A DNA stretch of 64,000 nt from a virus: the IMG/VR virus record IMGVR_UViG_3300009370_000018, positions 4,396-68,395 of that record; one strand, 5' to 3'. This document shows, piece after piece, positions 32,501-53,034 of this stretch. Position 1 is the first letter of the stretch. The number at the start of each line of letters is the position of its first letter. The notes below the pieces were generated by a model. That model worked only from the letters and a program-made list of their open reading frames with translations, was not told where the DNA came from and made no database searches. The position numbers and the translations under genes were made by a program.

Positions 32501-35500
32501 CTACATTGCAAACACATTAGGCACAGGTATACCAGATCATGTATCAGCGCCAGACCATTGGTGGAACCCTGCTCCGAACAATGCAATTGGTAGAATGTAT
32601 CTTGAGAGCTATTCAGCAGGGGTGAGTGGGCAGTTTGCAGTTGGATCAAACTGGTGGCCCAGAGGATACTCTACGTTTGATGCTCCTGCGTCAGACTATT
32701 CTAATAATACATTTACCATAGGGGAGTTTGCATATCCATTTAGAGTGGCGGATTCTACTACACCACGACTTACTGATGTGGATATTGTTGATGATGGAGA
32801 ATCGCCCATTGGTGGAAATAATAAGGTTCTTCGTCTGAAGAAAGCTAAGGCTGCCGCAGTTCTATATAAGTCTTCCCAAACGTCTGGTACTTATCATAGT
32901 GATCCGACAGTTATAATTCCAAAGGGAAAGAAGTGGATTCTTTCTTGGTACGCCAAGATTGATACTGTTTATCCCGACACACTAAACTCTGGTGTCTTTG
33001 TTATACCAGCAAATTCGTCAGGGCTTCAAGGAGGAAAAACTACTTTTGCAAGTAAAGAACACCCCTTAGACGATGGCGACTCTACTTATTACCTCAATAC
33101 AACTGATTGGGAACGAAAATGGGTCAATATTGACCTAAGAACAGAAGCCAATACGTTATGGCAGCATGGTGATGGAACACATCGATGGTATTATGCTAAG
33201 GGCAGTGGCGCTGGCGAAGTGAACATGACAGCCAATCTTCAATTGATTAGTGCAAATACAATAGATCGATTAATTCTTCGGATAGATGCTGGCGGTTGGA
33301 ATGATTCAACTAATGAAAATATTGTCGGTAATACTGTTTACTATACTGGCTTTCAATTAGAAGAAGTCCCGGCTGATAGATCTACCCCAACAGATTTTAA
33401 AGACCCCTCTGATGCATCTGCGGTTGTCTTTGGCAGACAGATCACAGACGGAAAGATCGTCACGCACTATAGCCCAGACTTTGACAACGGAGCCTATGGT
33501 CCGCAGCCCAATACCACACCAACTGGTTTGCCAAACCCAGAGCCTCATGGCGACTTCTGGATCAACACATCCAATGGTAACATGATCTTCAGGTATCACC
33601 AGAATGATGACAACAACAGCGCACAGACTGCCAACTATGCATACTTCCCGGTGCTGTCAGGCGATGATTATTCTGGTTGGTATACAGGACAAGATACACA
33701 AATAATCTACAATCTTTCAAATACACAACAGCAATGGCTTGACATCGCCAACACATTGGCCCAGACTGCATTTGCACAGAGCAGAATCGACAATGACATT
33801 GCTGCATACTTCTATCCATCGGGCACTAGTATAAGTGGTATAACTTTTGCTACTGATGGTGTTTCTGGTGCGGCTGAATTTGGAGACATTTGGATCGATA
33901 CAGGTGGCACTCATATGCTGGCCAACGGAACATTAGGTGCCGCGGCCATTCATAGGTCTCAAAATGGAACGAGTGGGGGTGGTGGCGATTTAGTTGATAC
34001 ACTATACTGGAGGCAGGCTGCCGGTAATCAACTCGGCCGCGTTTATCTAGAAACTTGGGCCACAAAGAACTCGGTAGACAGACAGACAATAACCGTCTTT
34101 AGTAACTCGTTTGGCGAGACTGCACACGGTACGCATGGTCCAAATACATGGTTCACACCAGACGGTGTTCTTAATCCTTATCCACATGGAGATTTCTGGC
34201 TGAACACAAGAAACGATGGGCCAGATGGCGCATCGAATAATCAACTGTTTATATATCTGACAAATTCTACCTGGAGTGCTGATCAGACTGAATCATTGAT
34301 TAATTCATCTAAGAAAAAGGCATGGGCCCAGACAATTCTTTCTGGAGTCTTTACGCCTGGTGATAGTCAGACTGGTTGGTGGGATGCAACAGATTCGCGT
34401 GTCAATACGGCACTTGTCATTGCCGAAGGGGCTCAGTCTACACTTTCTACAGATGTTTTTGGTCCTGGTGGTCTGAGCGCACAGACAATTTGGGCTCTTC
34501 AAAATACGGTATTCAATAGAACCGAAGCAGATAATGATAGAGTCATTTTGTATTATTCCTATGGGGCTTCGTCGCCCAGCCCTTCTTATAATTTCCAGAC
34601 ATCTATTAGTAGTAGTGGGGCTCCAGATTTTCCTGATGCCCAGGCTTCGTTTGGCGACATCTGGATTAATACATCAGGATTGAATCAAAATGCAGATGGA
34701 TCTCTTCACACAAATGCAATTCATAGGGCTCAAAATAGCACAAGTGGTGCCGCCGGATCTTTAGGATGGTATCGAACACCAACTAATCAGTTGGGCTTGG
34801 TTTATCTTGATGCATTTTTGACAAGAAATGTTGCAGATAGAAAAGTTGCTATTTTTGTGAGTAGAGGGTTCACAGCAGGCGATGATGCTCCAACTAGATT
34901 CGACGGAACTGGAGATTTGGTAACTACGTTGGGTTACTTTGGTCCTAATGTGGCGTACACAGACATTGATGATCAAGAGATTTTTAATCCAAATCCGGAT
35001 GGTGACCTGTGGTATGACACTACAATTCCAACAGGAACTAGTAGTCCTCGTAATGTTCTGTATGTCTATAAGACAAACGCTGCTTTCCATATTGGAGAGA
35101 ATATACACGACTATACGAACCAGGGAGTTTGGGCCCAGACAGTTCATCGAGATACTGTATTTGATTCTACGAAACCAACTGGTTGGTATGATGTAACAGA
35201 CACTCGATTAAGCTCGGCAGGGATTGCAGCAGACCGAGAGATCATTTCATTCTTCCAGACATCTAGGGCCGGCCAGCCAACTGGATCAGGAAATGGTGAT
35301 ATTTGGATTGTGACAGATTGGGTAAACGGTGGAGCGAACACTGGAGCGATTTATCGTTTTGATACTCGCGTTGGTCCTGGTTGGACTGGTCCAACTGTCT
35401 TTGGAGGAGTTAGTGGTACAACTAATCAATGGGTGTTGGCCGAGGAAAATGCTCTTGGTCTGATGTATCTCAGTTCATATGCTGCTGGAACAACTTTGGG

Positions 35501-38042
35501 TTTAAATATTTTACCGGCACCCTATTCAGATTTTAGTGCACCAAAAGATGATTATGCATTTAGTTCGGTGTCTGCTGGTGATGTAGTTTCCGGAACAGGA
35601 GTTCCGTATCCTATTTGGAACAAAAATATAACACGACTTGTCATGAATCTTAATAGTGATGTAGGGTTCACTACTAGGGGCGCTTCTATTGAAGCTACTA
35701 TGACACCCACTAATCTGGCGTGGCCCACTGAAGAGTTTTCATTCAGTAATAATCAATTGAGTAGTGATGCCACTTCTAGAGTGACAGATTGGACGGCTCC
35801 GAATTCTCCTCCTGGTTCACCCTTTATTGTAAATATTCCTAAGGGGAAGCGTTGGATCTTTTCTTATTATGCAAGGTCAAATAATTATCTTAAAGCGCAC
35901 ACTAGATGCGATTTAAGGATTAAAGATTCCACGCAACCCACTTCTAATACGTTCTTCATTCATGATGGAAATCCTTTCAATTCTGGATCATCTGGGGGCT
36001 TTTCTGCAAATAATGAATGGAATCGAAGATGGGTTATTTTTGATCTATCTAATACGACACACATTATGTACGGGAATAAAGACGACGAAGGGGACCAGCA
36101 GGCGCGCGTAGTACAAAGTTATAATCAGGGTGTATCTTATCCCGCAGATGGGAATTTTACTTTTAATCCAAATTCAATTAGTTTTAAAGAATTTCCAAAG
36201 AATGATTCTCCTAATTCTACAGGTGCTGCTGGAGCACATACATATCCTGCAAATGTAGATCAGATTATGATAGGATTTACACTATCAAATACTTCTAGTT
36301 ATTGGTTTGAGGCTGGAGGTGATCCGGCATCGCATGGAATTGGGAGTTCCTCTGATCCCGCAGATGGACAGGCACTTGATTCCCCTGTTTCAGTCTTCTA
36401 TGATGGCCTTCAGTTAGAAGAAGTTGCTCTTGATGTTTATGAACCGACGCCATTTAAGGAACCATCTGGTTCATTTGGTGCTTCTTTTGGCCGCGTAATC
36501 GCCGATGGAAAGGTAGTGGCCCACTTTGCAGATGGAATAGAGGACGATACCGGCGCTGGAATATATTTGTCAGATAGGCTTGGTCCTCCGCCGAACACAA
36601 CTCCAGCAGGACTTCCTAATCCTGATCCTAATGGTGACATGTGGATTGATACTGCAAATGGCCATGCCGTATACCAATACTATGCAAATAGTGTCTATGG
36701 AACTGGGCTCCCGGGAGACATTGCAGACACCATAGATTCACAGAGAGTTTTTTATGTCAGGCCTCCTCTAGCCGGTGAACGCGATAACGTCTATGTTGGT
36801 TGGATTTCAACACAGGATACAGGCATCGCCGCTGCAAACCTGGCTGCATATGAAGGAATTGCGCGAGGCGAATGGGCCCAAACTAATCTTAGTACAGTAT
36901 TTACGGTTCCGTATCCTCCTGATGATATTCCAACGGCATATAAGGCAAATGACATATGGTTCAATACATCAGATCCAAACGACTTTCTTGATGGAGCCGG
37001 AGTTCCGACACATGCCGGGCACTATTCTAATGCACTAACCTATGGAATGAATAGACAGTACAGAGCATTTGCGGCAGAGGTCGATCATATTGGACCTGAG
37101 GGATGGATAGAAGCCAGAGACAATGCCACCTTGTTTAGTTTGGCTGGGGATGATCCCTTTGACCTGAATCCCTTCTTTGCCAAGTGGGGTAATCGTGTAG
37201 GAACAGTTGCCGATGGAGCTCCTGATGGTTGGGTTTTTAGTCAGCATCTTGGTACCGGAGAAATTGTTGCAAATAATACAATATATCAATCAGGAGATGC
37301 AGATAATAGACTTAGTGTGCAAATTACAGGTGGTGGAGAAAGTAGATATATCTATCGGACAATTAGATTCCCAACTCCTCTCTTTGCAAATAGTTTTATT
37401 ACAGGTGCCTATGTGGGAATGGTTGGTTCGGGAGATGGACAGGGATATAATACTGGCGTCGGCGGGCTTGTTATTACTGTAGAGCATCAGCCAGCAGGGG
37501 GAGGTACAGTTAGAACAGATGACTTCCAGGCGTCACTCGGAAATAACTTTTCGGGGGGTTCTAGTAGTTGGGAAGTTGTTCCGTTTAGGGCCACCACAGA
37601 TCAAGTGTTTGGAGGTCCAGGTGGATCAAGAGAAATCACGGCGGTCACCTTTCATTTAGGGGTATTTGCAAACTCTTCTGAACATACAGGTGGTAGTGGC
37701 GAGGACATGAAACAAGGAGCCACCACAGTAAACTTTGATCAAATTTATTTTGACATTTTACATCCATTCTTGCGACTAGACGCAAATGGATCTATCAAGG
37801 GTACATATCTAGAAGATGCGACTATTACGACTGCAAAGATAGGCGACCTTCAGGTTACAAATGAGCTACTTGCTGCTGATATTGATGCAAGTAAGATTAC
37901 CACAGGAACCTTACAGGTAGGCACCACGGTGTCAATAGGTGGGCATTTCAATTCTGCAATAGGAGTCCAGGCTGCCGCAGAGACTGCAAAGATTGTCATT
38001 GATGGAGTTAATGGACGAATTATTATTAGAGATTCAAATTAA
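23574..38042 (+). CDS. Giant repetitive tail-fibre/adhesin-like protein (4822 aa)
   Basis: Many GD[IL]WI[DN]T repeats, CBM-like PxGK[KR]W..LEEV domains, a LamG-like domain, and C-terminal ATITTAKIGDL..IDASKITTGTL. Confidence 0.8.
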   Translation: MGKLVLDIDVEGRGFQSSNNTPSNGMYFKTGYQPDYPEYSNSVMMYISNKRRIGIKTQNPRADFHVDGTILAKSIITEGFGSEPSVQVVDNELFVQDGPDCGGTIPTSVYPGDIWIDTCADESGFPKIYTAAIGGASIIATGHWVLGESSGLISSDVNIFVQTEAPTATNIGDIWFDSDNFYFAYRAISLGTDGWEPADDLNAEFGDNFTTIVVTLTGAMADSEIIGYFNDEDPSKGFIRGRVGAHTNASFGDVWIDTSAHNKLPSGELKTNAINRWQNSTGGFINSSAVTVVEGELYGQGLAWRYAPSDATGQVYLETYLTRNIADRKSVTYYTNSYTTTTGAADGGGVYGPNVASTPTGQDNFNPQYDTWVDITPIGDEEGIPEFNPYIYLVNSSFDYTYSDSLAAANAWARHIYPGGGFDFDTSGTGWWNIRDTGILRVNSAFQTLNGYFTGLEGEFASLSGDFSSLEAQLDAGAFTIPFADKEVLLFIGDFTKDFGTAGNKRPDASSNNDVWIVTDYLLNPDGSANSNSIFVSTANTTAGAGHEHETDPLEYDEGGVTINHHWTQSPNNAVGGVFLDLYARGTLGEFDRGVNIMPRGYSMWDANPNEYKFDSFDETTPYQIQVRQDVLTPALGLVNTTFGAVSLGSLQLSSGGVAGEGDAEEAYATLANTGGSTTKAIIRKGPPAVTLRIPEGKKWIFSYYAYSNSTADVSVLPNHELVIYLDDTNNPTSNIVYFDNYHLADFTARNTWERFEYVIDLSNTHIHANASSYTDLSPRPWGVVGEKITYEATPPSDPLIAPTHARLSNLNSMTIRLDNNSFGGPGNTIWFDGLQLEEVGPYMTTASNFKEPGDHASLLFGRALTDGKIVVHSSPEFDEGDEAYPGGPTVYGPEPHLTPRDRRPNPEPHGDLWINTSNNDIIFRYHQNAINNTAQTAYYSYESNLTQASNSGWYSTQDERFGLFFANIVTLNAQIYDALANVDSLRTVADHDIITFFVPEDGSLFGNTQSNPSANFGDIWINTSDYNANLTHGGLAPNAVFRYQNGTSITTAPDLLWARSSPPVGSAGTLAWHHAPEDSFGKLYLSTTFNRNVADQKSVTYFEDGTTSGVPTSQYSGPNVAVTPLGVLNLNPKDDLWFDTGNGYVLHVYKANNTFADEYSGISLAVGNRYWDRTRRAGVWETDGTSPSGWYDVQDTRIGTIAADLAGNALSVGYALANSVDAKAIADHEIISHYAYEGGNFIAQSAPGSTGAGFTIPAGYGDIWINQSHWNTQGDGSLSANAILRFQNSSGGSMNTVGGVSTGATSNLSWNFAPNNAVGRVFLDAYLARNIADRKTVVFYAPNTGSPGAYFGPNPNTTPSGLNNPNPEGDLWIDTGGIPSSNKLYVYKTNGSFLIGQYVEPTLPMDAKAWSQTTYSGTIWDVGGSSPTGWYDAQDSEIADLRANVGNILNRVGIVESQGDREILAFFQDLGDATEIPDASGNNDVWIQTDYAVQIPSGAPNTAAIYISNSSASIALSGGEYWSDGGDVNTKRFFTDPGAVNGIHYWIPSPYNAIGLFYLEAYSAGIRGQFYRGPNIIPRGYSMWDANENDYLIYNNGGVGDTLDSVTPYQLFNYEGGLSVNTTFGAPDVPGTSSIEYTNIRSGTYNATLFANTNEYDSKQVYSNNYPGIISLPRGKRWVFSHYATSNSIDTPVSSLPDTRFYLYFSDIDDPGANVVQWAVGTSDFTTGLSNNTWQRFEYVVDLSNTSPSAVPSNTLDESVKGITTTSDLSTQLPSYHESRVANLNSMMIRLDVIGRTGNTIWVDGISMQEVANDISTAGPFREPGEHATIVFGRQITDGKVVAFYSPQIGDKGPVANVTPTGLPNPEPHGDFWINTSNLNMLFVYNQVGTNTSAHTANYSYYDTDEYDTITESGWYLSQDRQIGYSYANLVTQAQNVEHLFANVNFQRGLIDRDRVIFFEAHPGGVGDSEYSDGDFVRDGASAGSGAQFGDIWINIHPDNQHANGSLLANAIHRYANGSGGASTTPPHGDSLRWEFAPDDAIGKIYLETWYTRNTADRKTAIFYESNTFSGGRYYGPNVYFTQGAIVNPNPDGDLWIDTGGANRLYVYRTNTSFVVGSHPKDGGWAQTTHNSSATGAGGNFDPTRSDARGRGGWWDIQGFDSTEIEESILLNAWEAANALANAQFAQQLVANTQAIIDGEIISFYAPHDGGDFDPGEDHPTAKYGDIWIDTHPNNHLANGALDPAAIYRYSNSEGGSSTPSLTAPTNLGWYQAPNNAIGKVFLDSWKSQNTADSKVVTYIQAGTPLGTVPALYGPNPANTPSGAYNPNPENDLWIDTQDNYRIYRYQVIGSDVTTNTAYQTPNTTHSGWADVRDARIGDFPFSESRKAHLSMTEWAIEDVSHLEGGSSEELVLYDDSGNRNHARQSLSYSSNFTGDTNDFVATTIKGISTKALNRVNSSTMGWPPETSAAGKYYKDLALLDHDAIRNANQQSYAIWFKPSGLAQRHDWRIITRDQNEYWSLNIGGNTTHLYGGSETPHDYFFPSDGSYVNAIIKGSVESTPGAGAVGTDGRKRENILKYNTWNFIAFTLDYKGDNEVGNSVWYFANEDDGWENANVFYYSLDKDASANLSYSGDWGEDRGRGVGLQNNESPGAGADLAETGGGYAAPGHYAEFKYFDTYLSQSSIKKLYDFPFGVEDTSRNMLQTVRSQAIADGEIISFYAPESSPGGGFVRGETHPTANFGDIWIDTSESNANLTHGGLVVDAINRYQNTSFGPSQSEGILVWEAAPTNAVGKVFLDAALARNVADQKTVAYYIGNDAVGTTGYGPNVAVTPSDVLNPNPDRDLWIDTYGGNRLYIYLTNSEFSSVYVNPDSGTDKSAWAQTIHSGIFALDGSSFSGWWDVQDTELRDLIRVNEWSAANALADAANAQSSADHEILAFFEPEAAVGPDATGNGDIWIFTGYPVDLDGTPNIASIYIANTLGTGIPDHVSAPDHWWNPAPNNAIGRMYLESYSAGVSGQFAVGSNWWPRGYSTFDAPASDYSNNTFTIGEFAYPFRVADSTTPRLTDVDIVDDGESPIGGNNKVLRLKKAKAAAVLYKSSQTSGTYHSDPTVIIPKGKKWILSWYAKIDTVYPDTLNSGVFVIPANSSGLQGGKTTFASKEHPLDDGDSTYYLNTTDWERKWVNIDLRTEANTLWQHGDGTHRWYYAKGSGAGEVNMTANLQLISANTIDRLILRIDAGGWNDSTNENIVGNTVYYTGFQLEEVPADRSTPTDFKDPSDASAVVFGRQITDGKIVTHYSPDFDNGAYGPQPNTTPTGLPNPEPHGDFWINTSNGNMIFRYHQNDDNNSAQTANYAYFPVLSGDDYSGWYTGQDTQIIYNLSNTQQQWLDIANTLAQTAFAQSRIDNDIAAYFYPSGTSISGITFATDGVSGAAEFGDIWIDTGGTHMLANGTLGAAAIHRSQNGTSGGGGDLVDTLYWRQAAGNQLGRVYLETWATKNSVDRQTITVFSNSFGETAHGTHGPNTWFTPDGVLNPYPHGDFWLNTRNDGPDGASNNQLFIYLTNSTWSADQTESLINSSKKKAWAQTILSGVFTPGDSQTGWWDATDSRVNTALVIAEGAQSTLSTDVFGPGGLSAQTIWALQNTVFNRTEADNDRVILYYSYGASSPSPSYNFQTSISSSGAPDFPDAQASFGDIWINTSGLNQNADGSLHTNAIHRAQNSTSGAAGSLGWYRTPTNQLGLVYLDAFLTRNVADRKVAIFVSRGFTAGDDAPTRFDGTGDLVTTLGYFGPNVAYTDIDDQEIFNPNPDGDLWYDTTIPTGTSSPRNVLYVYKTNAAFHIGENIHDYTNQGVWAQTVHRDTVFDSTKPTGWYDVTDTRLSSAGIAADREIISFFQTSRAGQPTGSGNGDIWIVTDWVNGGANTGAIYRFDTRVGPGWTGPTVFGGVSGTTNQWVLAEENALGLMYLSSYAAGTTLGLNILPAPYSDFSAPKDDYAFSSVSAGDVVSGTGVPYPIWNKNITRLVMNLNSDVGFTTRGASIEATMTPTNLAWPTEEFSFSNNQLSSDATSRVTDWTAPNSPPGSPFIVNIPKGKRWIFSYYARSNNYLKAHTRCDLRIKDSTQPTSNTFFIHDGNPFNSGSSGGFSANNEWNRRWVIFDLSNTTHIMYGNKDDEGDQQARVVQSYNQGVSYPADGNFTFNPNSISFKEFPKNDSPNSTGAAGAHTYPANVDQIMIGFTLSNTSSYWFEAGGDPASHGIGSSSDPADGQALDSPVSVFYDGLQLEEVALDVYEPTPFKEPSGSFGASFGRVIADGKVVAHFADGIEDDTGAGIYLSDRLGPPPNTTPAGLPNPDPNGDMWIDTANGHAVYQYYANSVYGTGLPGDIADTIDSQRVFYVRPPLAGERDNVYVGWISTQDTGIAAANLAAYEGIARGEWAQTNLSTVFTVPYPPDDIPTAYKANDIWFNTSDPNDFLDGAGVPTHAGHYSNALTYGMNRQYRAFAAEVDHIGPEGWIEARDNATLFSLAGDDPFDLNPFFAKWGNRVGTVADGAPDGWVFSQHLGTGEIVANNTIYQSGDADNRLSVQITGGGESRYIYRTIRFPTPLFANSFITGAYVGMVGSGDGQGYNTGVGGLVITVEHQPAGGGTVRTDDFQASLGNNFSGGSSSWEVVPFRATTDQVFGGPGGSREITAVTFHLGVFANSSEHTGGSGEDMKQGATTVNFDQIYFDILHPFLRLDANGSIKGTYLEDATITTAKIGDLQVTNELLAADIDASKITTGTLQVGTTVSIGGHFNSAIGVQAAAETAKIVIDGVNGRIIIRDSN
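24230..36830 (+). repeat. Four degenerate intragenic super-repeats (approximate bounds)
   Basis: Recurrent order FGDIWI unit, NPNPxGDLW unit, GNxD[VI]WI unit, CBM-like domain, PNPEPHGD unit; DNA at 26286-26359 and 33531-33604 differs at about 9 of 74 nt. Confidence 0.8.
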
Positions 38043-38044
38043 TT

Positions 38045-41000
38045 ATGTCGTTTACAGATAGGATAATACTAGGTAATCATCCAGCAATAGATGATAATTC
38101 TGGGGTATGGGTTTCTAAACCCAACGTAAATGTTAGTGCCGTGGCCGGAAATACTTATTTGGCAGGGCTTTCTGATTGGTATTCATGGCATGAGGAGTTT
38201 GATTTTACAAATTTGGTTGATGGTAGCTATGTATATGAAGATGCCGAACCTTATGGATCTGGTTTTGCTACAATTCCAAATTCGTCAGGCGTGACGGACA
38301 CAAATCTTATTTCTAAAATTGCAAGACAACCCGAAGGAACATTAAAATTTACTGCTGCTCCTGGGGTTCAAAATCTCTATACAAAAAGAGCAGTTATAAA
38401 TGGGAAGCCTTCTTCTGATGATTCTATTTTAGGAGTTCATTATCCAACAGTAGAAATGAGATTGAGAAGAACCAGTGATTCTCATCCAGCACTTCCTAAT
38501 ACTAGCCTGAAACTTTATTGGACATTAATGACTATTGATGGGGAGCATGAAATAACAGGAGATGGGGATTATAGTGTAAATACTCCCACGATTGATGGAT
38601 CAACTATTAGCGATTATGCAGATATAGATACGCTATTTCCTGTTAATACATGGCGTTCTTTGGAGTGGGATTTGTCGAGTCATAATGGTTGGATTGATGC
38701 GGCTCATGCTGCACATCCTGTACCAGGAGGGGCATATTCATCTGGGGAGTATAGGGCTATTCAATTAAGGTTTGATCTTATAGACGATGATGCATATACA
38801 AACCCTGGAGCAGAGAAGAATGATATTCCTCTTTTTGAAATAGACTATGTGCGAGTAAAAAGACCTAGTATTCCTAGAAATTTTAGTCCGCATGATAATT
38901 CAAAAGATTCTATGTTCATAGACACAGATGCCGTACGCTATGGATCTGTTCATCAGTCTGGATTTGTTCAGATAGGAACAGGGCGAGCAAAGATTGATGG
39001 ATTGGCCGAAATAACAAACGGAAAAGACAGAGCCGATCCTGATGCCAGAGGAACAAATGGTTGTTATTTGGGACATGTAGAGTTTCAACCTTTGCCTTAT
39101 GTTCCTGTGGTTATTTTTCAAAGGTATGATCCTAGTTCTAATACTGTGTATCCTGCGGGAGAAAAAGAGTTTTCTTTCCTGACGACAACTGGAACTGATA
39201 CGATTCCTAGTACAGAGGTTAGAACTTTTGCATATGTTAGATCGGGTAGATCGTATTTTGAAATAACATGTCGTGGAGCACTTGCGCGCGATGGTCTGGA
39301 ATGGGCATTTAATTATGCAAATCAATATCCGCCATCGGCCGAGCTGGATAATCCAGGAGAAGTGACGTTTGCCAATACTGGGATATGGGGAACAAGAGGA
39401 GACCAATTAAGAAAGATAAGTGATAATACAGTAGTGACTACAACTCCTTCCCCAAATACAGCAGGCATATTCAGAAACGATATGTGTGATTGGGGGTTGT
39501 TTCCTTTTTCGAGATTGTTGCATGAACCTGATTGGTTAAGCGATATTAATGCATTGGGTAATGATCCTAAAGGTAATTCTTATCGTAATGAGTATTTCAT
39601 AAACGACAAACATTGGCTAGGCCTTCCTTGGGTTCCTAATGGATTTACTAAACAGCCTGTCTACGATGCCACTACTATAGGAGAAGGGGGTACGGTATTT
39701 GATGATTCTGAGATTGTAGGTGATAGTGCTGGAAAGTCTAGTACCGGAAGTGGATTGCCAAATCTTTCACTTACTGGAGATAACAAACAACCTAAGCGGG
39801 ATCTTTGGGTGAAGAGATCAAGTATGCAAAATGATTTTCGGGAATTTAGGGCTAGAGATCATGGTCCCAGAGGAAAAGGACATGATGCCGAATCTTCAAT
39901 AAACTTGGCATCAATAGGAATTACAAGCGGCGAAATGCCTGGTACTGATGTAGAATCTACAGCTTGGGAGCTTTGGGAAAGATCTAAACGTAATTCACAT
40001 CCCTATTCTATACCAGATCCTAGTTATATGCATGGCCCTATGCAAACATGGGCCGATGGGTATTCAGATATTAGGAGGTCTGGTGATTTTGTGCTGGGGG
40101 ATGGCTCTATTGTGACCCAAAACGATCCTGCGATTGTTCCTATTGGTTTTCCTGGATATGTAGATCCTCAATCTTTATCGGGGGCGTATATGTATACAGG
40201 TCCTTGGGAAATTCCCTGGAATACTCCAAGGGCTAGTACAATTAATAGTTTTTGGGGTAGCAGAGTAACACAAGGAGTGATGGGTTATTGTTCGCAGACG
40301 ATATATAACAGACATCAGGGAGTTTTGTTTTCAGGAGGGAAACATTGGATTCTTGGTGAATATGTTAGCAGTAAAGTAGGAGGAATGAGTAATACAAGTT
40401 TTTATTATAACGATGTCTACATTCCAGCCAAATTTAATTTTAACGGGTCTGATGCCGATATAGCATTTGATGATGTAGTAGATTCGTCGGTGCAACCTGC
40501 GGATATGGGAACACCTCAGGCATGGAGGCCTTCTACTCCATCTTTAGGAGAGGCGCATTATCTTCCTCGTTGGTTGTCTACTGAAGGAAATGCCTATGAA
40601 GTTGCATTTGGTAGCGATGGAAACCAATCGGCTCATGTAATGGCCATGCACGATGATATGCCACCAGAAATTTGGATGTTATCATTTGCCGATGGTGCAG
40701 TTTCAAAATGGAACACTAGTTTTAAAGATCCTACATATTCAAGGTTCGATATAAACCATGATCTATATTTTAAGGGGGAAGGTCCTTCGTATAATATTCC
40801 TGCGAGTGCCACTAATATGTTTACGCAAAAGATAGGAGCTAATACTTCGGGTGTCTGCCATCCATATGGTGTTGTTCCTTTTGATGGAACAACAAATCAA
40901 AATGAGGCGTTACATGATACGGGCGTTACAATAGATGGAACACCAAATATTTCTACCTATTTTGCCAATTACTCTGTCACGAATAATCAGTCTACATATA

Positions 41001-41164
41001 TAGGAGGGGCACCATATAAAGATGTGATTCAATACGAGGCAGATGGAACGACAACCAAACCGTTGAGCGGTCAGACCAATCCCGGCTCAGACGCCTACAA
41101 TCACGATGGGGCGCCTTGGTATAAATATTATGTCATGAGGATTCCAGCAGAGTATGTTCCTTAG
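38045..41164 (+). CDS. Putative fibre-associated virion protein, paralogue 1
   Basis: 1039 aa; N-terminus DRIILG..SGVWVSKP shared with the next two genes. Confidence 0.6.
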   Translation: MSFTDRIILGNHPAIDDNSGVWVSKPNVNVSAVAGNTYLAGLSDWYSWHEEFDFTNLVDGSYVYEDAEPYGSGFATIPNSSGVTDTNLISKIARQPEGTLKFTAAPGVQNLYTKRAVINGKPSSDDSILGVHYPTVEMRLRRTSDSHPALPNTSLKLYWTLMTIDGEHEITGDGDYSVNTPTIDGSTISDYADIDTLFPVNTWRSLEWDLSSHNGWIDAAHAAHPVPGGAYSSGEYRAIQLRFDLIDDDAYTNPGAEKNDIPLFEIDYVRVKRPSIPRNFSPHDNSKDSMFIDTDAVRYGSVHQSGFVQIGTGRAKIDGLAEITNGKDRADPDARGTNGCYLGHVEFQPLPYVPVVIFQRYDPSSNTVYPAGEKEFSFLTTTGTDTIPSTEVRTFAYVRSGRSYFEITCRGALARDGLEWAFNYANQYPPSAELDNPGEVTFANTGIWGTRGDQLRKISDNTVVTTTPSPNTAGIFRNDMCDWGLFPFSRLLHEPDWLSDINALGNDPKGNSYRNEYFINDKHWLGLPWVPNGFTKQPVYDATTIGEGGTVFDDSEIVGDSAGKSSTGSGLPNLSLTGDNKQPKRDLWVKRSSMQNDFREFRARDHGPRGKGHDAESSINLASIGITSGEMPGTDVESTAWELWERSKRNSHPYSIPDPSYMHGPMQTWADGYSDIRRSGDFVLGDGSIVTQNDPAIVPIGFPGYVDPQSLSGAYMYTGPWEIPWNTPRASTINSFWGSRVTQGVMGYCSQTIYNRHQGVLFSGGKHWILGEYVSSKVGGMSNTSFYYNDVYIPAKFNFNGSDADIAFDDVVDSSVQPADMGTPQAWRPSTPSLGEAHYLPRWLSTEGNAYEVAFGSDGNQSAHVMAMHDDMPPEIWMLSFADGAVSKWNTSFKDPTYSRFDINHDLYFKGEGPSYNIPASATNMFTQKIGANTSGVCHPYGVVPFDGTTNQNEALHDTGVTIDGTPNISTYFANYSVTNNQSTYIGGAPYKDVIQYEADGTTTKPLSGQTNPGSDAYNHDGAPWYKYYVMRIPAEYVP
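41120..41127 (+). promoter_or_regulatory. Possible late promoter within the 3' end of a CDS
   Basis: Exact TATAAATA ~60 nt upstream of the next start. Confidence 0.5.
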
Positions 41165-41186
41165 TACAAGGCAGTGAGTGTATAAA

Positions 41187-42551
41187 ATGACAGATCGAGC
41201 GATTTTAGGAAAAAATTTAAAGAAGCCTGTAGAAAATTTAGGTTCTGGTGGATGGGCATTTGCGACTACTAGAGACGTAACTACATATCCTGGTGGTACA
41301 GGAGTTAGAGGAGATGGTGGTGGACTGACTACTTATAGGACTAATGGACAAGATGCCGAAGATTATGATACGACCGACCCGCTAGGGAATTTGGGTTTAG
41401 TGTCGCTTATGACTGGATTGACGGAAGGTGGTGCGGGAGAAGTTGCATATACCTCCACTAATACTATTTCTGGTGTGCAGCTACAAGGAAATGCCTGGAA
41501 GAGAAGTGGGATTAGACTGAAAGATTTCCAATCAGAAGGTCTTGGTTATGCAGTAGATCATACAGCGCAGACTTTTGTTTATACGACAGGAATGTATATG
41601 TCACTTGACTACAAACAAGAGGGGCGCGAGGCAGAAATTCAGGGAATAACATTTGTCGCAAATGACAATGCAACAGGAAGTACATTAGGGGGAGTAGGGG
41701 AAGGGAAATCTGATATTTTTTGGCAGTTTGGAGGTACAGAAGATTATGGAACATCAACACCTAATCCGTACTACCGAACTTATAAGACATCTGATTTTGG
41801 TACCTGGAAAACATATTTTTTTGAATTAACAGGATTGGCCGAAGGCGAAACATATAATATAGTATTAGTGCAAGATGCTGATACTATCACAACGACTCAA
41901 GATTCCGTGGTTGACGTTCCTGCAAATCCTGGTCAAGGTATACCAGCAATCCCAGTTCCTAGAACTTATTTTAAAAACATAAAAATTGGAACACCAAATA
42001 CTGGACTATATATTTCTGCATCTGGGTCGTCAGTAGTGTCAGATAGTCCAGGAGATTTTATATTTTCTAGTGATGATGGTTTTTTTCAGCCATTGAAATC
42101 TGGAAGAGTTGCGATTCCTCCTGCTTCAGAGGACTCTATCGGAAAAGAAGGGGTTGCGAATGTGTATACTGGAATCGTGTCGCCACATTATGACGACACA
42201 CCTTTGATGGTTTCGTGGAATATTGTTGTGGAGTCTGCCAATATTCATCCTTTGTATAACGGTGCGTTATTTGGAGGAATTTTTCCGTATACAGGGCCTG
42301 TCGAGGTAATATCAAACCTTTCATCTATAGGAACACAGTTTATTGATGATGTGAACCAATGGCAATCTGAAATTGAATCGCAAAATAGAGTAATTCCTCA
42401 GGTCGGCTTGAGTTGTATATCGATTGCGAATACTACCACAGATCCCAATTCAATAGATTTGCAATTTAGAAATGGTTCTACGTTAAACACACAATTAGTT
42501 TTTTGGACTGTATATAGGGAAAGAGGAATGCCAGAGGTCAAGGAGCTATAA
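41187..42551 (+). CDS. Putative fibre-associated virion protein, paralogue 2
   Basis: ORF track starts at GTG 41178; ATG 41187 gives MTDRAILG, matching the paralogues; later GLYISASG..DFIFSSD. Confidence 0.6.
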   Translation: MTDRAILGKNLKKPVENLGSGGWAFATTRDVTTYPGGTGVRGDGGGLTTYRTNGQDAEDYDTTDPLGNLGLVSLMTGLTEGGAGEVAYTSTNTISGVQLQGNAWKRSGIRLKDFQSEGLGYAVDHTAQTFVYTTGMYMSLDYKQEGREAEIQGITFVANDNATGSTLGGVGEGKSDIFWQFGGTEDYGTSTPNPYYRTYKTSDFGTWKTYFFELTGLAEGETYNIVLVQDADTITTTQDSVVDVPANPGQGIPAIPVPRTYFKNIKIGTPNTGLYISASGSSVVSDSPGDFIFSSDDGFFQPLKSGRVAIPPASEDSIGKEGVANVYTGIVSPHYDDTPLMVSWNIVVESANIHPLYNGALFGGIFPYTGPVEVISNLSSIGTQFIDDVNQWQSEIESQNRVIPQVGLSCISIANTTTDPNSIDLQFRNGSTLNTQLVFWTVYRERGMPEVKEL

Positions 42552-42552
42552 A

Positions 42553-45500
42553 ATGGATAGAGTTCTTGTAGGAAATGGCATCACTTCTTCTCAAGGGAGT
42601 GGTCTATTTGCTTCTAGATTGGGCGCAAATGTTTTAGACCCTGATCAGGCTCTAACTGGAAATTTGTCATTTGATTCTAGTGATTTTACAGATGGTTCGT
42701 TGGAAGTTATTCAATCGGGACAGTTTACTCTTACTTGTAAAAGAGAAGTAATTCCTGCAAACTTTCCTTCTGGGATCAATTATATGGAAACTGCGGGAGT
42801 AGAAATTGAAATTGAACCGGCAAATAGAGATGGAACGATTCCAGAAATTGCAATATGGTATGCAGTAGGCAATTCTTCTGGGTACTTTCATCCTTGGTAT
42901 ACAGATGTTGCGGTAGACCAAGATAGTTTAGGATCAAATGGTTATGGGCATGATAATGCAACATTTACTGATCGTACAAAAATTAAACATATGGACTCTG
43001 CACAATTTCGCGGAAAATTTAAAAATCAGGCTCAGGTTGGTTATGTAGATCCTAGTATTGAAGTTGTTTCTGATATGAATAGATGGCCGTGGACATACCT
43101 AGGAATAACAGGAATTACAGAGTACAGAGGTTGGGATGATTTTTATTTAGAACCATCAGACGGAACATTTGCAAAGAATGTGGTTGATTGGGTTTGCGAA
43201 ACCACAGGATCTGTGCATGAAGGAACGACAGATAGTACCGTGTTTGGGGATACGTTAGCAGGATATGAAACTTCTCCATTGACCCCATCTTATTCGGTAT
43301 TTAATCATCCAAATAGATCAGGATATACTCATATTAACGAAGGTCTTTATCAAGGTGAAGATATTAAGAGGTCGCCTATTGAAAAGGAGCGTGCAGGGGG
43401 AACTAGATATGCAACGTTGGCAGATTTTCGTGGTGGCGGAGGCGCAAATGTGTCGGCTCTATGGAGCCCTATCATGCAGGCTCGTTTTGGAATTGCTGCC
43501 GAGGATGTAGTATACAGAGCCAATAGTCTAGTTTTTAATACTCCATCAAGAATTAATGCAAATGATTATCCGCACAGTATATTTTCGCAAAATAGTGGGC
43601 TTGTGGGCGTAGTTTATTTTGCAGACAATACAAGATTGATTGTCAATGCATTTATGACGCCCACTTATACTTCAATGGATGGACCCTCACATGAAACGGC
43701 AACATATGAAGAAACGCAGGCAGATTTTACCACACTATATGCTACTGTGGCGCAAGGCGGTTTTGGTGGAAATAGTTATTTGGTTGCATCTAATACCATG
43801 TATCAACAATTGGATCCAGATCGCAGAAAATGGCCACTTTCAAAATTTCATTCGCACACTATCTGCCCTCCAAAAGGAAGAGATTCGTTCTTTAACCCAT
43901 ATTCAAATAATTATATTCAGCATGTTAATTGTTTTCCCGATAATTATTCTTGGTATGATCTTTATGACACTTCTTATTATTTGCAAAGAGTGCAAGAAGC
44001 TGGGCAGGATACATCTAGCGGGAGCAATGATTTAACTAATATTGGTCAGTATTTTAAGGCTGGGCCTACGGGCTCTCCTTTTTACTGGGAAGTAAGTGAT
44101 CCATGGTGTTATGATGGCGCCACCAGTGGAGATCCTTTGAATCCTGGTGGGCCAGGAATCCAAGGAGCAGGTAGTGCTCTTGAATATGAATATCTAGATT
44201 GGATGGATATGGATGGACCCTCGTGGCCCTATCCCCCTCATTTTGATCGAACTTATTGGCTTACAAATCACATTGGGCTTACTTACAATAAAATTGGATG
44301 GCAAACTTATATTGATTCCGTTCTAGGAGCGGGTTTTCGTTTTGGGATAAACGCAGCAAATAATACATTTCCTGCTGGGGATCCTGGGCCTAGTACAATT
44401 GAATACAGAACAAGACCTTATTTGCAATATGCCAATGCTACTTTAACTGATATGGTTGCGCCAGAAGGACATCCTGAATGGGATGCAATTGCACAGAGCC
44501 CTGCCTTAGGTGGTGCAAGCTGGACATATGACCCTGTTTGGGGTCATTTTGAAGGTCAGGCTGGTTGGCATACAACAGGGCCCATACTCCAACCATATAC
44601 TGATGTAGATGGACGGCCTCATTGGCCGGGTGGTGTAATGGGGTTTGGTGACGGGACTAACAATTCTGAACAACCTGCTGTGTTTGATGATATTGATATT
44701 ATTTCTGATGATGATTATGGATTGTGGGCTCATTATAATCACTTATTACCGACTAATTTACAGACATTATATTTTGATCCAGAAAACTTTGAAACAACTG
44801 GACACGAAAAGGGTCTGAGTGTTGGATCGTATCCGGCATGGAAGAATGCCGATGGTACGCTAAATGAAAATTGGAGTCCTTATGGTTCAAAGCCTTGGAA
44901 TAAAAATCCTTCAAAGGTGGTTGCAGCCATGTTCTATCGACATGGTCCGTGGGATAGATTCCAATGGAGAAAAGGATTGTATTCGCCATGGCGCCCTGCG
45001 GCAGAGTGGGGTCCTGGAGGTACACATGGATTTGGACCAGGGCTTGGTGGAGCAGGATCTGTCGATGCGCTACAAGGTGATCAAGACGTATATGATACCT
45101 ATTACTGTAAATATATCATGTATCGTTCAGGAACGACAGGCATAAAAACTCTTGATCCTCCTGTTGTTCCTCAGACGTATAATTTCGATGTCAGGCCGAG
45201 ATGGATACCTGCCCAATTGGAGGGAGGCTCCGTACTGGTAGCCAATACGGGTGGAGATATAACGATTCTGAGCAAAACATACAAGGATTATAGAACTCCC
45301 ACTAGAACAACAATAGGGGAAGGAGCTACCTTTAGTGGTCTCCTTCCCGGGATTGAATCAACAGCCCAGAATCTTGCGTTAACTAATTCGCTTACAGAAC
45401 AACCGCTTTCAGATGGCGAGGTTCTTCTTGCATATCCAGAAGACCTAAAATTTAAAAAATCATCTACGTCTGATCGTACTAAATTTCGTACTGGCACCTC

Positions 45501-48500
45501 GCCGGCGCTTTCCCAAATTAATGATCATAGGGGTTATTATGGATTAGTTTTTCCTGATGATTTTGTAGAAGAAATTGGAGTTGAAGGAAGAGATCCATTT
45601 TTTGATAGACGAGATCCTTCAGGAAGAATATATGGAAATATCGTCATCAATTTTAATATTCCACGATATGTAAATGCCCATGCCAACGGAAAACTTCTCG
45701 ATACTTCTGGAGGTTCCCATCCGGGCTCTGGTAATTTTGACTTTGGTCCGGGTTCTGAAAATATTTTGCGTCATATTAATTTTTTTGGATCAGATAATTA
45801 TTTACACGGAACTCTAAAGGGCGCAGAACAACAGCCAACTCCGGCTATTACTTTTGATTTTACAGACAGCAAATGGTATTTTGGGCCCACCACAAAGAGC
45901 ATTTCGTTAACCGTTAATAATGCAGGAGTAATTGTTGGTGGTGGAGGTCCTGGGGGATGGGGATCTAGGTCGAGAACATTATCAGTAAGCGGGTCGGTTT
46001 TATCTCCTAAACTTGCGGGGTTTATTGAAACAACAGACGCTACTGTAGGAGGAGGAGGAGGTGGAGCAGGAGGAGGAACAGGAGGAACCGATAAAACAAA
46101 GGATCCTAGTGTAATGCCAATTCCAGAGATAGCCTCTAAATATTATTGGTCGTCATATATTGAATCTGGTGCGAACGAACCCCAATTACCTCCTTCTACA
46201 TTTTCGCAACAATATGGTTATAATTATCCTTATATGGCAGAGTTGAGACTAACACATTTTGATTTAGACGGCGAGCCTAAGGCAGGAGCAGGTACAGTCA
46301 CGGGAGGATATTCATATAAAGGGGTGGGAGAGGGTGGATATGGTTGGGCTGATACTTCTATAGGACCAGAATATATTAATGATATTTTTAATGGTGTTCC
46401 GTGGCCAGCAATTTCAGGAAATCGAGAAGATCTTCCCGGAAAAGAAGGATCTGATTCTTCCTTTGAGGTGGTGGATTTTACATCCGAAAGATCGCAATTT
46501 CTTGGTAGCTTTACTGGAACTCTTTCTGATGTTGAAGACCCTAATAATTGGCCAAGATTTGAAGATCAGCAGAGCAGTTTTGGTGGTCCCGGAGGTGCTG
46601 CGGCAACTATTCCATTCAACGAGTTTATTACCCAAGATGATCCTTTACAAGGGTATTCATTGGACGGAAGAGTTCGTTTACCTTATGATGGTTCTGATGG
46701 AGGAGATGCCATTAAGATCTTGGCAGATTTTAAGGCCACAGACATAGATGTCCAAATTATAAATCAAGATGGTGGTTACATATATGGAGGAGGCGGAGGA
46801 GGTGTTGGTGGTTATGGGGGTGATGTTACGGCCCAAGATGGTAAATCTGGTGTTGATATTGCAAGGGATAATCCACAGACGGCACCAGGTTCAAACTCTA
46901 CAGGGCAGGCAACCATTACAAGGAATTCAGGCTATGCAGGACATTTGGTGGGTATGCATTGGTTAGGAACTCACAACTCTTCTATTCGAGTGTATAATTA
47001 TGGATCAAATACATCTGTGGCTGGAAGATTTGCAAATACATCTATACCCCGAGCAGGATCACAAGAATGGGGAGGCCCCTTTAGGTATGAAGGAGAGAGA
47101 GATCTTGTAAATCTTCAGACACACAACCCAGAAGGCGAATATGGTTGGGTTTCTAACGGAGCAGCAACGTCTGGAGAGGTTGGTGTAAAGGAATATCCGA
47201 CATCATTTTCGGATTGGGGAGCAAATGTATTACCAAGATTTAAAGCCAATCTAATTCAAGCAACCGGAAGCGGAATACCTGGTGAATATCCATATCACGG
47301 AGGTGATGGTGAAAATTATAGTCAATTTACAGGGCGTCATCAAGAGCACTTAAATCCTACATCTGCGGCAGATGGGTTAACTCCACTTATCGATACCGGG
47401 TTTAATGCGTCTCAAGTTGTGAATATATCTTTCTCGCCTGATGCCGGTCATAGACATGTGGCTGTGACTATGTTAGATCCATTCAGATTTTCTTTTCGTG
47501 ATGTGTTCATCCTTAATCGCGACGAACTAGAACATCCAAACCAGTTGACTGGTGTTGTAAGATTGATGGGTGGTCATTATGAAGATGGGCTTGGTGACCA
47601 ACATAGTAATGAGACGGACCCTGTCACTGGTGGTGTCTTTGCAGATGGGCATAATCACGAGATCCTGCCTCAAAATTCTACTGAGGATAGCACTTCCGGT
47701 GGCGGTAACCACCACCGGCAGGTATTTGCGGACTATCCAGATGATATAGTTTTTGCTCCGACGCCAAATTTTGAAAAGTCTGGATATAGAAGGTCGATAG
47801 GACATGCAAATTGGATGATCGATGATTTTGGTGGTGTTTCCATAGTTGTTTCTGGTAATAGGCATGGTGGTGAGCCCGGAGTAGGTAGCTATGATTATCC
47901 AAATAGGCTTTATCTTCTTTCTCTTCTTAGAGGTATACCTGATTTAAATTTAACTGGTTCTCCTGGTGTTTTTCATCAGATTAGTTACTATGATAGTGTT
48001 TGGAGAGGTGGTTTACCAACGGCGTCGGGAATTTCAGAAATAAAACAGATTGACCATGTAAATCCAAAGCCACATCCAACACAATATGGTATTGTTATTT
48101 TTCAAGGTAAAACAACAAATGTTGGTGAACCAACGGTTCAGAATTGGAGCCTTTTTGTTTTATTTCATAAATCATTAGCTCAATCCTCAGTTGCAACTAG
48201 TTCACGATTTCCAACTTGGTGCGGTCGTTATGGGCGAGGAGCCAGCACTTTAGAAGAAAGCCCAGGTTCGGCGCCTAATCATCCTGATGGATTATCTTTA
48301 GTCTCGGTAAACACTTATGATGCCTCTTGGTCTCCTGATGGGACTAAAATTGTTTGTGTCAAAAATGGATATCTATATACTTTAGATTTTGATATTGATG
48401 CGATGGCTACTGATCCTCCTGCCAGTAATCCGACATTTATAGGCGGAGGAGCACCTGGAGCCAAAGTACACCATCCTATTTTTACACCAGACGGTAAAAA

Positions 48501-48838: not shown

Positions 48839-49093
48839 ATGAACAGATTTTCTGCGAACATACATAGTATAAACACATCAAAAGAACAATGCATCGTGAC
48901 AATTATGGATCGAGAATCCGATACCTATATCCTGGATAACAAAAATATTGGGCTTGTATTGAATCCTGATGGGGAGGCCAATACGGCATGGATTAAAGAA
49001 AAGGTGGAGCACATTATTAAAACTAGAATAACTCCAGCGATTAAAAAGAATAAAATTCCTATTAACATAAATGAGAAAGAATCGTCATCATGA
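48839..49093 (+). CDS. Hypothetical protein, paralogue of 52254-52520
   Basis: NIGLVLNPDGEANTAWIKEKV; RBS aagga. Confidence 0.75.
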   Translation: MNRFSANIHSINTSKEQCIVTIMDRESDTYILDNKNIGLVLNPDGEANTAWIKEKVEHIIKTRITPAIKKNKIPININEKESSS

Positions 49094-49581
49094 GAATACA
49101 CACGACAGTAGTAACCAAGGATCATTTTCTTGTTGTATTGCAATCTACACATAGACATGACGAGTTATATGCGGCCGAGAATTATCCTTCTGAAAATCCA
49201 ATAGGTTTTTTGGCCGAAGGAAGTGCAATAACTTTCAAGAAAGATTCAACGACCAAGCCTTGGGTCAAATATGCAGATTCCCTAACTGGACCGATTTTAC
49301 ATATTCGTTCAGTGTTTTCTTTGTTTGGTGCCGTGGCATCAGAAAATAAAGACCTTACTTACTTGACTATTATGCCTAGAAGCGACAATTCAATGGCGCT
49401 TTTGAAAAAGTTGGGACAGGAAATAACGCCTAAAGAAAGTGAAGAGATTGAAACTTCGGACAATTCATTTCAGCTTGGTCTGCAATGTAGGCATCCTTTA
49501 CAGAGAGATTTGAATACTTTTGCGCTTGGTTCTTTTGATGTGGCCGAAGACGTGGGCGAAATAGATTTTGATGGAATATAA
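49090..49581 (+). CDS. Hypothetical protein, paralogue of 53035-53520
   Basis: TKDHFL..IGF..GS..G.VAS..QC..RD..TFAL; ATGA overlap with the upstream gene. Confidence 0.75.
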   Translation: MRIHTTVVTKDHFLVVLQSTHRHDELYAAENYPSENPIGFLAEGSAITFKKDSTTKPWVKYADSLTGPILHIRSVFSLFGAVASENKDLTYLTIMPRSDNSMALLKKLGQEITPKESEEIETSDNSFQLGLQCRHPLQRDLNTFALGSFDVAEDVGEIDFDGI

Positions 49582-52520: not shown

Positions 52521-52527
52521 AAAAATT

Positions 52528-53031: not shown

Positions 53032-53034
53032 GGT

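Follow-up and report, generated by a model that had tools for sequence, protein, structure and literature searches.

Three tandem paralogues behind a giant fibre-like gene of a marine T4-like phage share one small domain with passengers in different loops

Three tandem genes on a 64,000-nucleotide (nt) stretch of viral DNA (the window; positions 4,396 to 68,395 of IMG/VR record IMGVR_UViG_3300009370_000018) were analysed by profile comparison, search of related loci and structure prediction. The genes P0001, P0002 and P0003 (together, the triad) lie directly downstream of an open reading frame (ORF) of 4822 amino acids (aa), as an initial annotation of this DNA had described, and encode paralogues of one small scaffold domain that is interrupted by large passenger domains in different loops (Table 1). 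The same three-gene set was found behind a fibre gene in very different phages, and the triad therefore probably forms the host-recognising end of the main fibre. The domain family is real and undescribed: it is unnamed in Pfam, PHROGs and NCBIfam, and no solved structure matches it by sequence.

One scaffold domain in three tandem genes, split at different positions

Four short motifs had been read as common to the three proteins. DR..[LV]G was confirmed once in each (residue 5 of P0001, 6 of P0002 and 2 of P0003) and did not occur in the 4822-aa protein. G[LV][WFY].S lay at residues 20, 276 and 17 and [QK]SG at residues 304, 307 and 54, respectively. F.[ST]D fitted P0002 (FSSD, residue 296) and had to be amended to F..[ST]D for P0001 and P0003 (FIDTD and FDSSD). 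Pairwise BLASTP among the three proteins was not significant (best E 0.26); the relationship therefore had to be tested by profiles, for which the 594 stop-to-stop ORFs of the window served as the target set.

A hidden Markov model (HMM) of the first conserved block (block A), built solely from relatives of P0003, matched P0001 at E 1.1e-6 (HMM positions 1-28 = residues 5-32) and P0002 at E 0.013 in two co-linear pieces (positions 1-10 = residues 6-15; positions 14-44 = residues 274-301), with the next-best window ORF after the triad at E 0.61. Two more profiles were built from bare proteins: HMM A11, from 25 such proteins of distant phages and P0040 (described below), and HMM A9, from bare second-position proteins alone. 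With A11 the top three ORFs were P0003 (E 7e-9), P0001 (E 1.1e-7) and P0002 (E 8.2e-7); A9 gave E 7.9e-6 for P0002, 3.1e-4 for P0001 and 4.2e-4 for P0003. Only these three window ORFs matched the triad profiles, and with each of the three HMMs all 500 shuffles of every triad protein scored below the real sequence. Block A of class 3, the class of P0003, was compared by hhalign with class 2 (probability 97.6%, E 3.4e-12) and class 1 (probability 94.2%, E 1.2e-7).

In P0002 the scaffold had been proposed to break right after DRAILGK and to resume at TGLYISASG near nt 42000, and both points held. HMM pieces covered residues 4-12 and residues 274-449, the latter as a single A11 alignment (positions 13-148, independent E 1.5e-6) with the last strand included; strand 1 gave a separate 8-column hhalign match (E 0.0019). 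The 440-aa orthologue of P0002 at locus L007 was split in the same way (block-A HMM E 1.8e-10; residues 2-17 and 269-309), and block-A HMM matches covered residues 210-252 of the L002 orthologue and 236-270 of the L003 orthologue. No split interrupted the matches of this HMM to the second-position proteins of L006, L005 and L004 (E ~2-3e-9). Homologues of the insert itself were present at L002 (E 1.9e-17) and L003 (E 2.2e-12), and the insert was missing from P0037, P0038 and P0040; the last, recovered in a class-2 profile search, is a 208-aa protein consisting of the class-2 scaffold alone. A word-based homologue search with P0002 returned P0002 alone, and relatives emerged through the profile. 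The P0002 ORF opens with GTG at nt 41178, and an ATG three codons further on gives M-T-D-R. This ATG at nt 41187 is probably the true start, giving 454 aa, because the database copy P0005 has 454 aa and relatives all begin M(x)DR.

For P0001 an insertion after GVWVSKPNVNV with resumption near nt 38906 had been proposed. The split was found at that place, and the resumption point was recovered through matches that were weak though consistent: A11 positions 31-103 aligned with residues 287-380 at 5.2 bits (hhalign E 0.14), and co-linear weak matches to the resumed scaffold were obtained in the orthologues P0035 (898 aa, 38% identity) and L007. A second, larger insert before the last strand had been overlooked. 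The search for related loci with P0001 as the query returned nothing. Among 673 ORFs with a minimum length of 100 aa, the C-terminal pattern [VI][LMF][RK][IVN][PFN] occurred within the final 25 aa of 20; every one was a triad gene, and 16 stood in first position. Of the candidate last strands named initially, FWTVYR of P0002 lies within the HMM alignment and that of P0001 carries this triad end motif, and CKYIMYR of P0003 is a candidate taken from block D. An equation of the block B string GNSSGHFHPW with ANTSGVCHPYG of P0001 (residues 932-942) was tried and rejected, as it scored -0.8 bits and the bare-scaffold HMM puts the scaffold at 287-380.

An exhaustive phmmer search with residues 1-130 of P0003 gave 28 representative relatives (E <=1e-3) among 1.84 billion proteins. 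Class 3 has four conserved blocks in the fixed order A-B-C-D, with spacers of very variable length (residues 1-72, 73-160, 335-390 and 795-890 in P0003); in 4 members 60-130 residues separate the first strand (..R..LG) from the second (GL.VS). The scaffold of P0003 had been taken as contiguous at the N-terminus. This was true of the first ~7 strands (A11 positions 3-108 = residues 2-111 unbroken, independent E 3.4e-8), but the conserved blocks further on occupy residues 344-378 and 805-880. Block C is a candidate late scaffold strand by its conservation. Of the 32 class-3 proteins examined, 18 possess block D and several of these stop directly after it (e.g., ..DTYIGKYIIYDLEGG); by eye the block resembles the ends of bare third-position proteins (..FYIIWDYDL). 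The extension that follows it contains a PD40 beta-propeller match (PF07676; residues 1974-1995, E 4.5e-5, 23.7 bits against a cut-off of 20.9), and its VFPDDFV and glycine-rich regions recur in class-3 relatives and in P0043, L004 and L005. In the sub-group formed by these last three (P0043, L004:272-4603 and L005:5468-9208), the second-position gene combines a class-2-type N-terminus with a VFPDDFV/glycine-rich C-terminus of third-gene type, and a 177-aa ORF lies between the second and third genes.

Insert 1 of P0001, after strand 2, was homologous to an insert that follows strand 1 in P0036 at L007 (residues 16-254, E 1.1e-5). The same passenger stands at different loops of different paralogues, and passengers therefore move between paralogues and loops. 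The class-2 profile search also gave relatives with a PD40 beta-propeller between two late strands; in the relative P0041 the PD40 match reached E 4.6e-20. Neither the P0001 inserts nor the P0002 insert matched Pfam. In the ESM Atlas, insert 1 of P0001 scored 0.90 to clusters of carbohydrate-binding module (CBM) or galactose-binding-like type and the P0002 insert 0.85 to CBM-like clusters (CBM27, CBM30, CBM_4_9 and SGBP_B_XBD for the two inserts), scores that are leads only; insert 1 of P0001 is possibly of CBM type. The split profile matches, the uninterrupted relatives and the passenger shared by two loops together bear out the initial proposal of one small scaffold common to three tandem paralogues with passengers in different loops.

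Table 1. Positions of the triad, its scaffold segments and inserts, and the adjoining end of the giant protein (window coordinates)
Feature	Position (nt)	Strand	Details
Giant protein, C-terminal ~94 residues	37758-38039	+	ends ..VIDGVNGRIIIRDSN; part of 4822-aa ORF 23574-38042
P0001, first triad gene	38045-41164	+	1039 aa, ORF
P0001 strands 1-2 (DRIILG, GVWVSKPNVNV)	38054-38179	+	residues 4-45; HMM A11 positions 2-40, independent E 6.7e-5; block A 1-28
P0001 insert 1, after strand 2	38141-38914	+	residues 33-290, passenger domain
P0001 scaffold resumes (DSMFIDTD, VHQSG, PYVPVVIFQRYD, RSYFEITCRG)	38903-39277	+	residues 287 to ~411, end judged by eye
P0001 insert 2, before last strand	39281-41110	+	~residues 413-1022, boundaries inferred; partly conserved in P0035
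P0001 last strand YKYYVMRIPAEYVP	41120-41161	+	carries triad end motif
P0002, second triad gene	41178-42551	+	457 aa from GTG start, ORF
P0002 strand 1 (MTDRAILGK)	41187-41213	+	residues 4-12; HMM A11 positions 1-9, block A 1-10
P0002 insert, after strand 1	41214-41996	+	residues 13-273, passenger domain
P0002 strands 2-9 (TGLYISASG ... IDLQFRNGS ... FWTVYR)	41997-42524	+	residues 274-449
P0003, third triad gene	42553-48822	+	2089 aa, ORF
P0003 contiguous scaffold start, blocks A and B, including IPEIAIWYAVGNSSGYFHPWY	42556-43020	+	residues 2-156
P0003 block C GLVGVVYFADNTRLIVNAFMTPT	43582-43686	+	residues 344-378, after ~190-aa insert; kept in 22/32 class-3 proteins
P0003 block D	44965-45192	+	residues 805-880; candidate last strand CKYIMYR at nt 45106-45126
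P0003 C-terminal extension	45193-48819	+	VFPDDFV region, glycine-rich region, PD40 repeat at nt 48472-48537

The three-gene set behind the fibre gene in other phages

IMG/VR was scanned with back-translated patterns, which recovered 11 loci in a first round and 15 in a second. The closest relatives had the same three genes in the same order behind a giant protein ending ..VIDGVNNRIIVKD. Triad sizes were 908, 440 and 1379 aa at L007-L010 and 1350, 553 and 1249 aa at L006. L002 and L005 carried the second and third genes with the first cut at its N-terminus, and at L003, L004, L011 and L012 the contig stops before the set is complete. The pattern GLF[IV]SKPG also matched unrelated-looking contigs (L020-L026), a genome scan gave prophages of three Nitratireductor genomes and one Rhodovulum genome (L028-L031), and tblastn gave Rhizobium phages including RHEph10.

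In the distant phages the tail-tip module was of lambda type and included a J-like protein (phrog_31, PF13550) ending ..NNRILVAD, ..NGRLLMSDNT or alike (upstream-gene pattern ..N[NGS]R[IL][IL][IV].D). The J-like gene was followed immediately by three tandem genes, no more and no fewer, each matched by the block-A HMM (E 3e-12 to 2e-3). Their products measure 118-269 aa, except that the L022 third gene encodes 589 aa. The conserved N-terminal block of the module reads ..R[VI].[LI]G / GL.[VI]SKPG.[DN]V / L.F.S. L022 connects the two groups of loci: downstream of its giant protein (>3321 aa) lie bare triad genes for 148, 128 and 589 aa and then a gene homologous to a 155-aa ORF of the window (E 3.9e-5); the extension of the L022 third gene had no BLAST match to class-3 extensions.

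Exactly three block-A-positive tandem genes were present at 13 loci (16 contigs or records: the window, L006, L007-L010, L020/L021 and L022-L031), and a J-like or giant fibre gene preceded the triad at every locus with a visible upstream gene. The neighbourhood search, which had been suggested as a check with the initial annotation, thus recovered the set after the fibre gene across widely differing phages. The whole 115-kb genome of RHEph10 gave exactly 3 matches to the bare-scaffold profile. Its triad (gp019-gp021) is annotated as hypothetical, and the matches in other Rhizobium phages likewise fall under hypothetical proteins. The middle triad gene of RHEph10 (L027, NC_034248) has an open frame of 118 aa at 8995-9348. 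The annotated start of gp020 (86 aa, 9091-9351) is probably too far downstream, because the longer frame holds the conserved ..NRVLFG.. start. In a tree, gene-position labels clustered (4 changes, where shuffles averaged 13.6), and the third-position genes of three lineages formed a 99/99 clade. No description of the three-gene module was found in the literature, supplementary material not covered; in the accessible text on phage T1, the heterotrimers of that phage are capsid cement proteins.

The triad had also been placed tentatively at the tip of the giant fibre. Support for this link is indirect and consists of the gene position at all loci with a visible upstream gene and of homology at the end of the giant protein, where residues 4729-4820 aligned with residues 3245-3321 of the L022 giant (37% identity, E 7e-6, BLASTP). 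The giant ORF ends ..GVNGRIIIRDSN, 2 nt ahead of the P0001 start, and a regular expression for the terminal motif occurred once in the window ORFs, at this end. The C-terminal end of the giant is a candidate docking end for the triad. Neither Pfam nor PHROGs had a family match to the giant protein. About ten long internal repeats are discernible in it by eye, with recurring strings such as GD[IL]WIDT.. and ..ADRKT..YY..GPN...TP.G..NPNP.GDLWIDT, and the related proteins at L007-L010 and L022 are of giant size as well.

Fold of the bare domain and possible assembly of the triad

A bare second-position protein (132 aa, 26-sequence alignment) was modelled with AlphaFold2 (AF2) as a nine-stranded domain (mean predicted local distance difference test score (pLDDT) 86.5; predicted template-modelling score 0.62). 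Foldseek searches with this model returned nothing from the PDB at E <=1e-3 and 9 matches from BFVD at the same threshold, to viral proteins that are all either unnamed or uncharacterised. The bare-scaffold profile gave only chance-level matches to Fab and trehalase (E >=0.35) among PDB sequences. Structural alignment was performed with VIA-align, using Z 8 as the guide value. Top matches, to the last six strands, were H-type lectins, tailspike C-domains, R1/R2 pyocin feet, the AP22 gp53 fibre and the minor pilins TcpB/CofB (Z 5.0-6.7), among them the lectins SLL-2 (Z 6.7, root-mean-square deviation (rmsd) 4.4, 82 aligned), 4q56 (Z 6.5) and 2ccv and 2w94 (Z 6.2), and AP22 gp53 (4mtm; Z 5.7, rmsd 4.7, 77 aligned). 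T4 gp9 was at Z 4.1 and TNF/C1q-type chains (4-1BB ligand) at Z ~4.1-4.3. Such likeness may be merely a common arrangement, and the conserved N-terminal three strands had no structural match.

Pfam, PHROGs and NCBIfam gave only PD40 in P0003 for P0001-P0004 and the small triad proteins, all else being sub-threshold. P0001-P0004 had no Pfam or PHROG match to the T4 baseplate and fibre proteins gp9-gp12, and P0001-P0003 none to Pfam H_lectin at E <=0.1. Nine of 11 small triad proteins had no Pfam family at E <=0.01 and 2 had unrelated weak matches, to DUF5406 and to Gp53-like_C (PF21882; the L020 first gene, E 0.0022, 19.0 bits, below the cut-off of 24.9); P0040 had none. The likeness to trimer-forming fibre ends, taken as a lead, is in keeping with the place of the triad in the genome and with this sub-threshold Gp53-like_C match.

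We propose that the triad would be the decorated form of an old, conserved three-gene module behind the main fibre gene, that fibre being the central fibre J in lambda-like siphophages and the giant fibre-like protein in these marine T4-like myoviruses. Each gene would encode a nine-stranded domain of ~125 residues, with ..RVLLG as strand 1, GLFVSKPG.DV as strand 2, L.F.S as strand 3 and a six-stranded beta-sandwich thereafter. Large passengers occupy loops after strand 1 in P0002 and after strand 2 in P0001, with another before the last strand of P0001; in P0003 inserts would lie among the later strands, with a 1200-residue C-terminal extension in addition.

Fibres of such kind are trimeric and the set is always three, and a mixed knob of one chain of each paralogue on the C-terminal end of the fibre is therefore proposed, at a probability of roughly 0.5. 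In the virion, one copy per paralogue (1:1:1) would assemble into a three-part knob docked where the trimeric giant fibre ends distally, at its C-terminus. The scaffold, through its conserved N-terminal part, would give assembly and docking, and the passengers (probably sugar-binding beta-sandwiches, a beta-propeller and glycine-rich domains) would bind receptors and give host recognition. Somewhat more tentatively, a widespread pseudo-threefold heterotrimer of anciently diverged paralogues may cap the central or giant fibre, and in marine T4-like phages its loops may form a display platform on which whole receptor-binding domains are swapped between paralogues and loops.

Several results weigh against the mixed knob. 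Beyond the first ~60 residues, blocks B-D were not detectably alike between classes by profile comparison (E >=0.049), and profiles of the P0003-family blocks B, C and D were not significant against P0001 and P0002; the common fold of the later P0001 and P0003 strands consequently rests on co-linearity, terminal motifs and bare relatives. An AF2 model of P0040 (10 sequences) was poor (pLDDT 57), with only generic sandwiches from the fold search (Z <=5.8). Structural matches of the bare model were all below Z 8 and covered only its residues 40-128, and the lectin-like fold is therefore a lead and not a finding. The identities of the P0001 and P0002 passengers are language-model leads. Deep nodes of the tree were unresolved, the second-position genes did not form one group, and strict one-to-one orthology was not established across phages. 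An HMM of siphophage J C-termini against the end of the giant protein was not significant (E 0.43), and the likeness of the giant and J ends is a short motif picked after viewing the sequences.

In the main rival reading, the genes would encode three separate receptor-binding homotrimers displayed as three side knobs or fibres, each tied to the fibre or baseplate solely through the conserved first ~60 residues. Such an arrangement would account for the confinement of the strongest between-class conservation to that segment, as in anchor domains, and for the structural neighbours of the sandwich, since R1/R2 pyocin feet, tailspike ends and the like form (homo)trimers at fibre ends. It is nevertheless less likely than the mixed knob. 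Alternative receptor-binding proteins usually differ in number, whereas exactly three paralogues were present at 13/13 complete loci, siphophages and myoviruses included; gene order and position-specific end motifs were conserved; and the bare forms, at only 118-154 aa, have nothing past the scaffold that could serve as a separate fibre. Side fibres on a central fibre do have a precedent in the F-type pyocin, in which PyoF13, a homotrimeric fibre, attaches in three copies to the central fibre's helical shaft via OB domains and the two further downstream genes are suggested as chaperones (PMC13455828). The pyocin is like the proposed knob in having recognition proteins in threes on a lambda-J-like central fibre with their genes just downstream, and unlike it in using one homotrimeric fibre in three copies and not three different paralogues of another fold.

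In an improbable reading the triad proteins would serve the giant or J-like fibre as chaperones or assembly factors and stay outside the finished virion. Small genes directly 3' of fibre genes are often chaperones, and fibre helpers of the lambda Tfa and T4 gp38/gp57 types are known. The window proteins, however, measure 457-2089 aa and carry lectin/CBM-like, PD40 and glycine-rich domains, their scaffold resembles fibre end domains and not known chaperones, and a downstream pair of 84- and 163-aa ORFs with its duplicate supplies better chaperone candidates. That the shared motifs are an artefact of chance or composition in unrelated genes, as non-significant pairwise BLASTP might suggest, is refuted by two independent profiles that rank the triad in the top 3 of 594, by the shuffles and by orthologues split alike (E 1e-10); judged by these comparisons, the three genes are related.

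Known recognition proteins offer partial parallels to the triad. Fibre feet and tailspike ends (6cl6, 6cl5, 4mtm; Pam1, LKA1 gp49, AP22 gp54) and H-type lectins (Helix pomatia agglutinin, SLL-2, discoidin I) may share with it a six-stranded sandwich of similar size and topology, as matches at Z 5.0-6.7 suggest; fibre feet are the covalent C-terminus of the fibre chain, whereas the triad consists of three separate paralogous genes after the fibre gene, and the triad domain differs from both feet and lectins in its extra conserved three-strand N-terminal part and, here, its large loop insertions. The C1q globular head is an A/B/C heterotrimer of paralogous jelly-roll domains encoded by three tandem genes. 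If the mixed knob is right, the triad would likewise be three tandem small-sandwich paralogues forming one mixed head on a trimeric stalk, although there is no homology and the C1q stalk lies within the same chains, whereas here it is a separate protein. Gp38 of the T2/T6/S16 type is a separately encoded adhesin that caps the long tail fibre tip of T4-like phages. The triad would resemble it as separately encoded recognition proteins at a trimeric fibre end in a T4-like phage; gp38 is, however, a single protein with another fold and glycine-rich motifs, and P0001-P0003 had no Pfam match to gp38 families. Among phage fibre-end recognition proteins, a heteromeric gene set and a loop-insertion architecture would be unusual.

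Phage neighbourhood and significance

The window contains a T4-type virion module in the usual gene order, gp5 to gp20, and a portal protein ~55% identical to portals of pelagiphage Mosig and cyanomyoviruses; the DNA is therefore assigned to an uncultured marine T4-like myovirus. The IMG/VR source record (68,395 bp) is rated 38% complete. Upstream of the triad lie, in order, a gp5-like hub, gp25, gp6, a gp7-like 1873-aa protein and gp8, then a 2907-aa DUF4815/phrog_358 protein and the 4822-aa ORF. Small ORFs follow the triad, and after them gp13, gp14, gp15, gp16, gp17, gp18, gp19 and gp20. The gp5-like hub/lysozyme is split over two ORFs, 1824-3431 and 3453-4778 (phrog_430 positions 19-104 and 322-470), as is the gp6 homologue, over 5214-5819 and 5880-7169 (phrog_219 profile positions 4-189 and 218-597).

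One small gene pair occurs twice, at 48839-49581 and 52254-53520. The 84-aa ORF (48839-49093) and the 88-aa ORF (52254-52520) are 39% identical (E 2.9e-15), and the 163-aa ORF (49090-49581) and the 161-aa ORF (53035-53520) are 31% identical (E 9.7e-17). The first pair adjoins the 3' side of P0003, and the second comes after a glycine-rich 356-aa ORF (51163-52233) with many GGGGG runs, which recalls the glycine-rich part of P0003 and had no significant BLAST match (best E 0.40). Homologues of the 163-aa ORF lie after or inside the triad in related loci (e.g., the 177-aa ORF of L004 and L005). The duplicated 84/163-aa pair are candidates for fibre assembly helpers.

Pelagiphage Mosig, the nearest cultured phage by portal protein, had 0 matches to the bare-scaffold profile and no triad. 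In Mosig (L013, MT647606) the region from the neck genes to a giant VrlC-like gene (39650-73446) contains many auxiliary metabolic genes (2OG-Fe(II) oxygenases, haem oxygenase, ferrochelatase, MoaA-like and others), where the window has the fibre triad instead. A set of 50,697 phage records yielded no match, either to the region by megablast or to P0002 and P0003 residues 1-130 by tblastn.

Host recognition by abundant marine T4-like phages is poorly understood, and their giant structural proteins and the genes that follow them are unannotated. Three such genes are now tied to a compact domain family common to Rhizobium phages and alphaproteobacterial prophages, and the cultured Rhizobium phage RHEph10 opens the question of the mixed knob to direct testing. 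If the mixed knob is true, it would be a rare heteromeric fibre tip in phages, and each fibre end could show three faces. Natural loop insertion would then be a route for exchanging receptor-binding modules and a new principle of host-range modularity, in siphophages as well as myoviruses, that would help to predict host range from metagenomes and to engineer the specificity of phages in laboratory systems.

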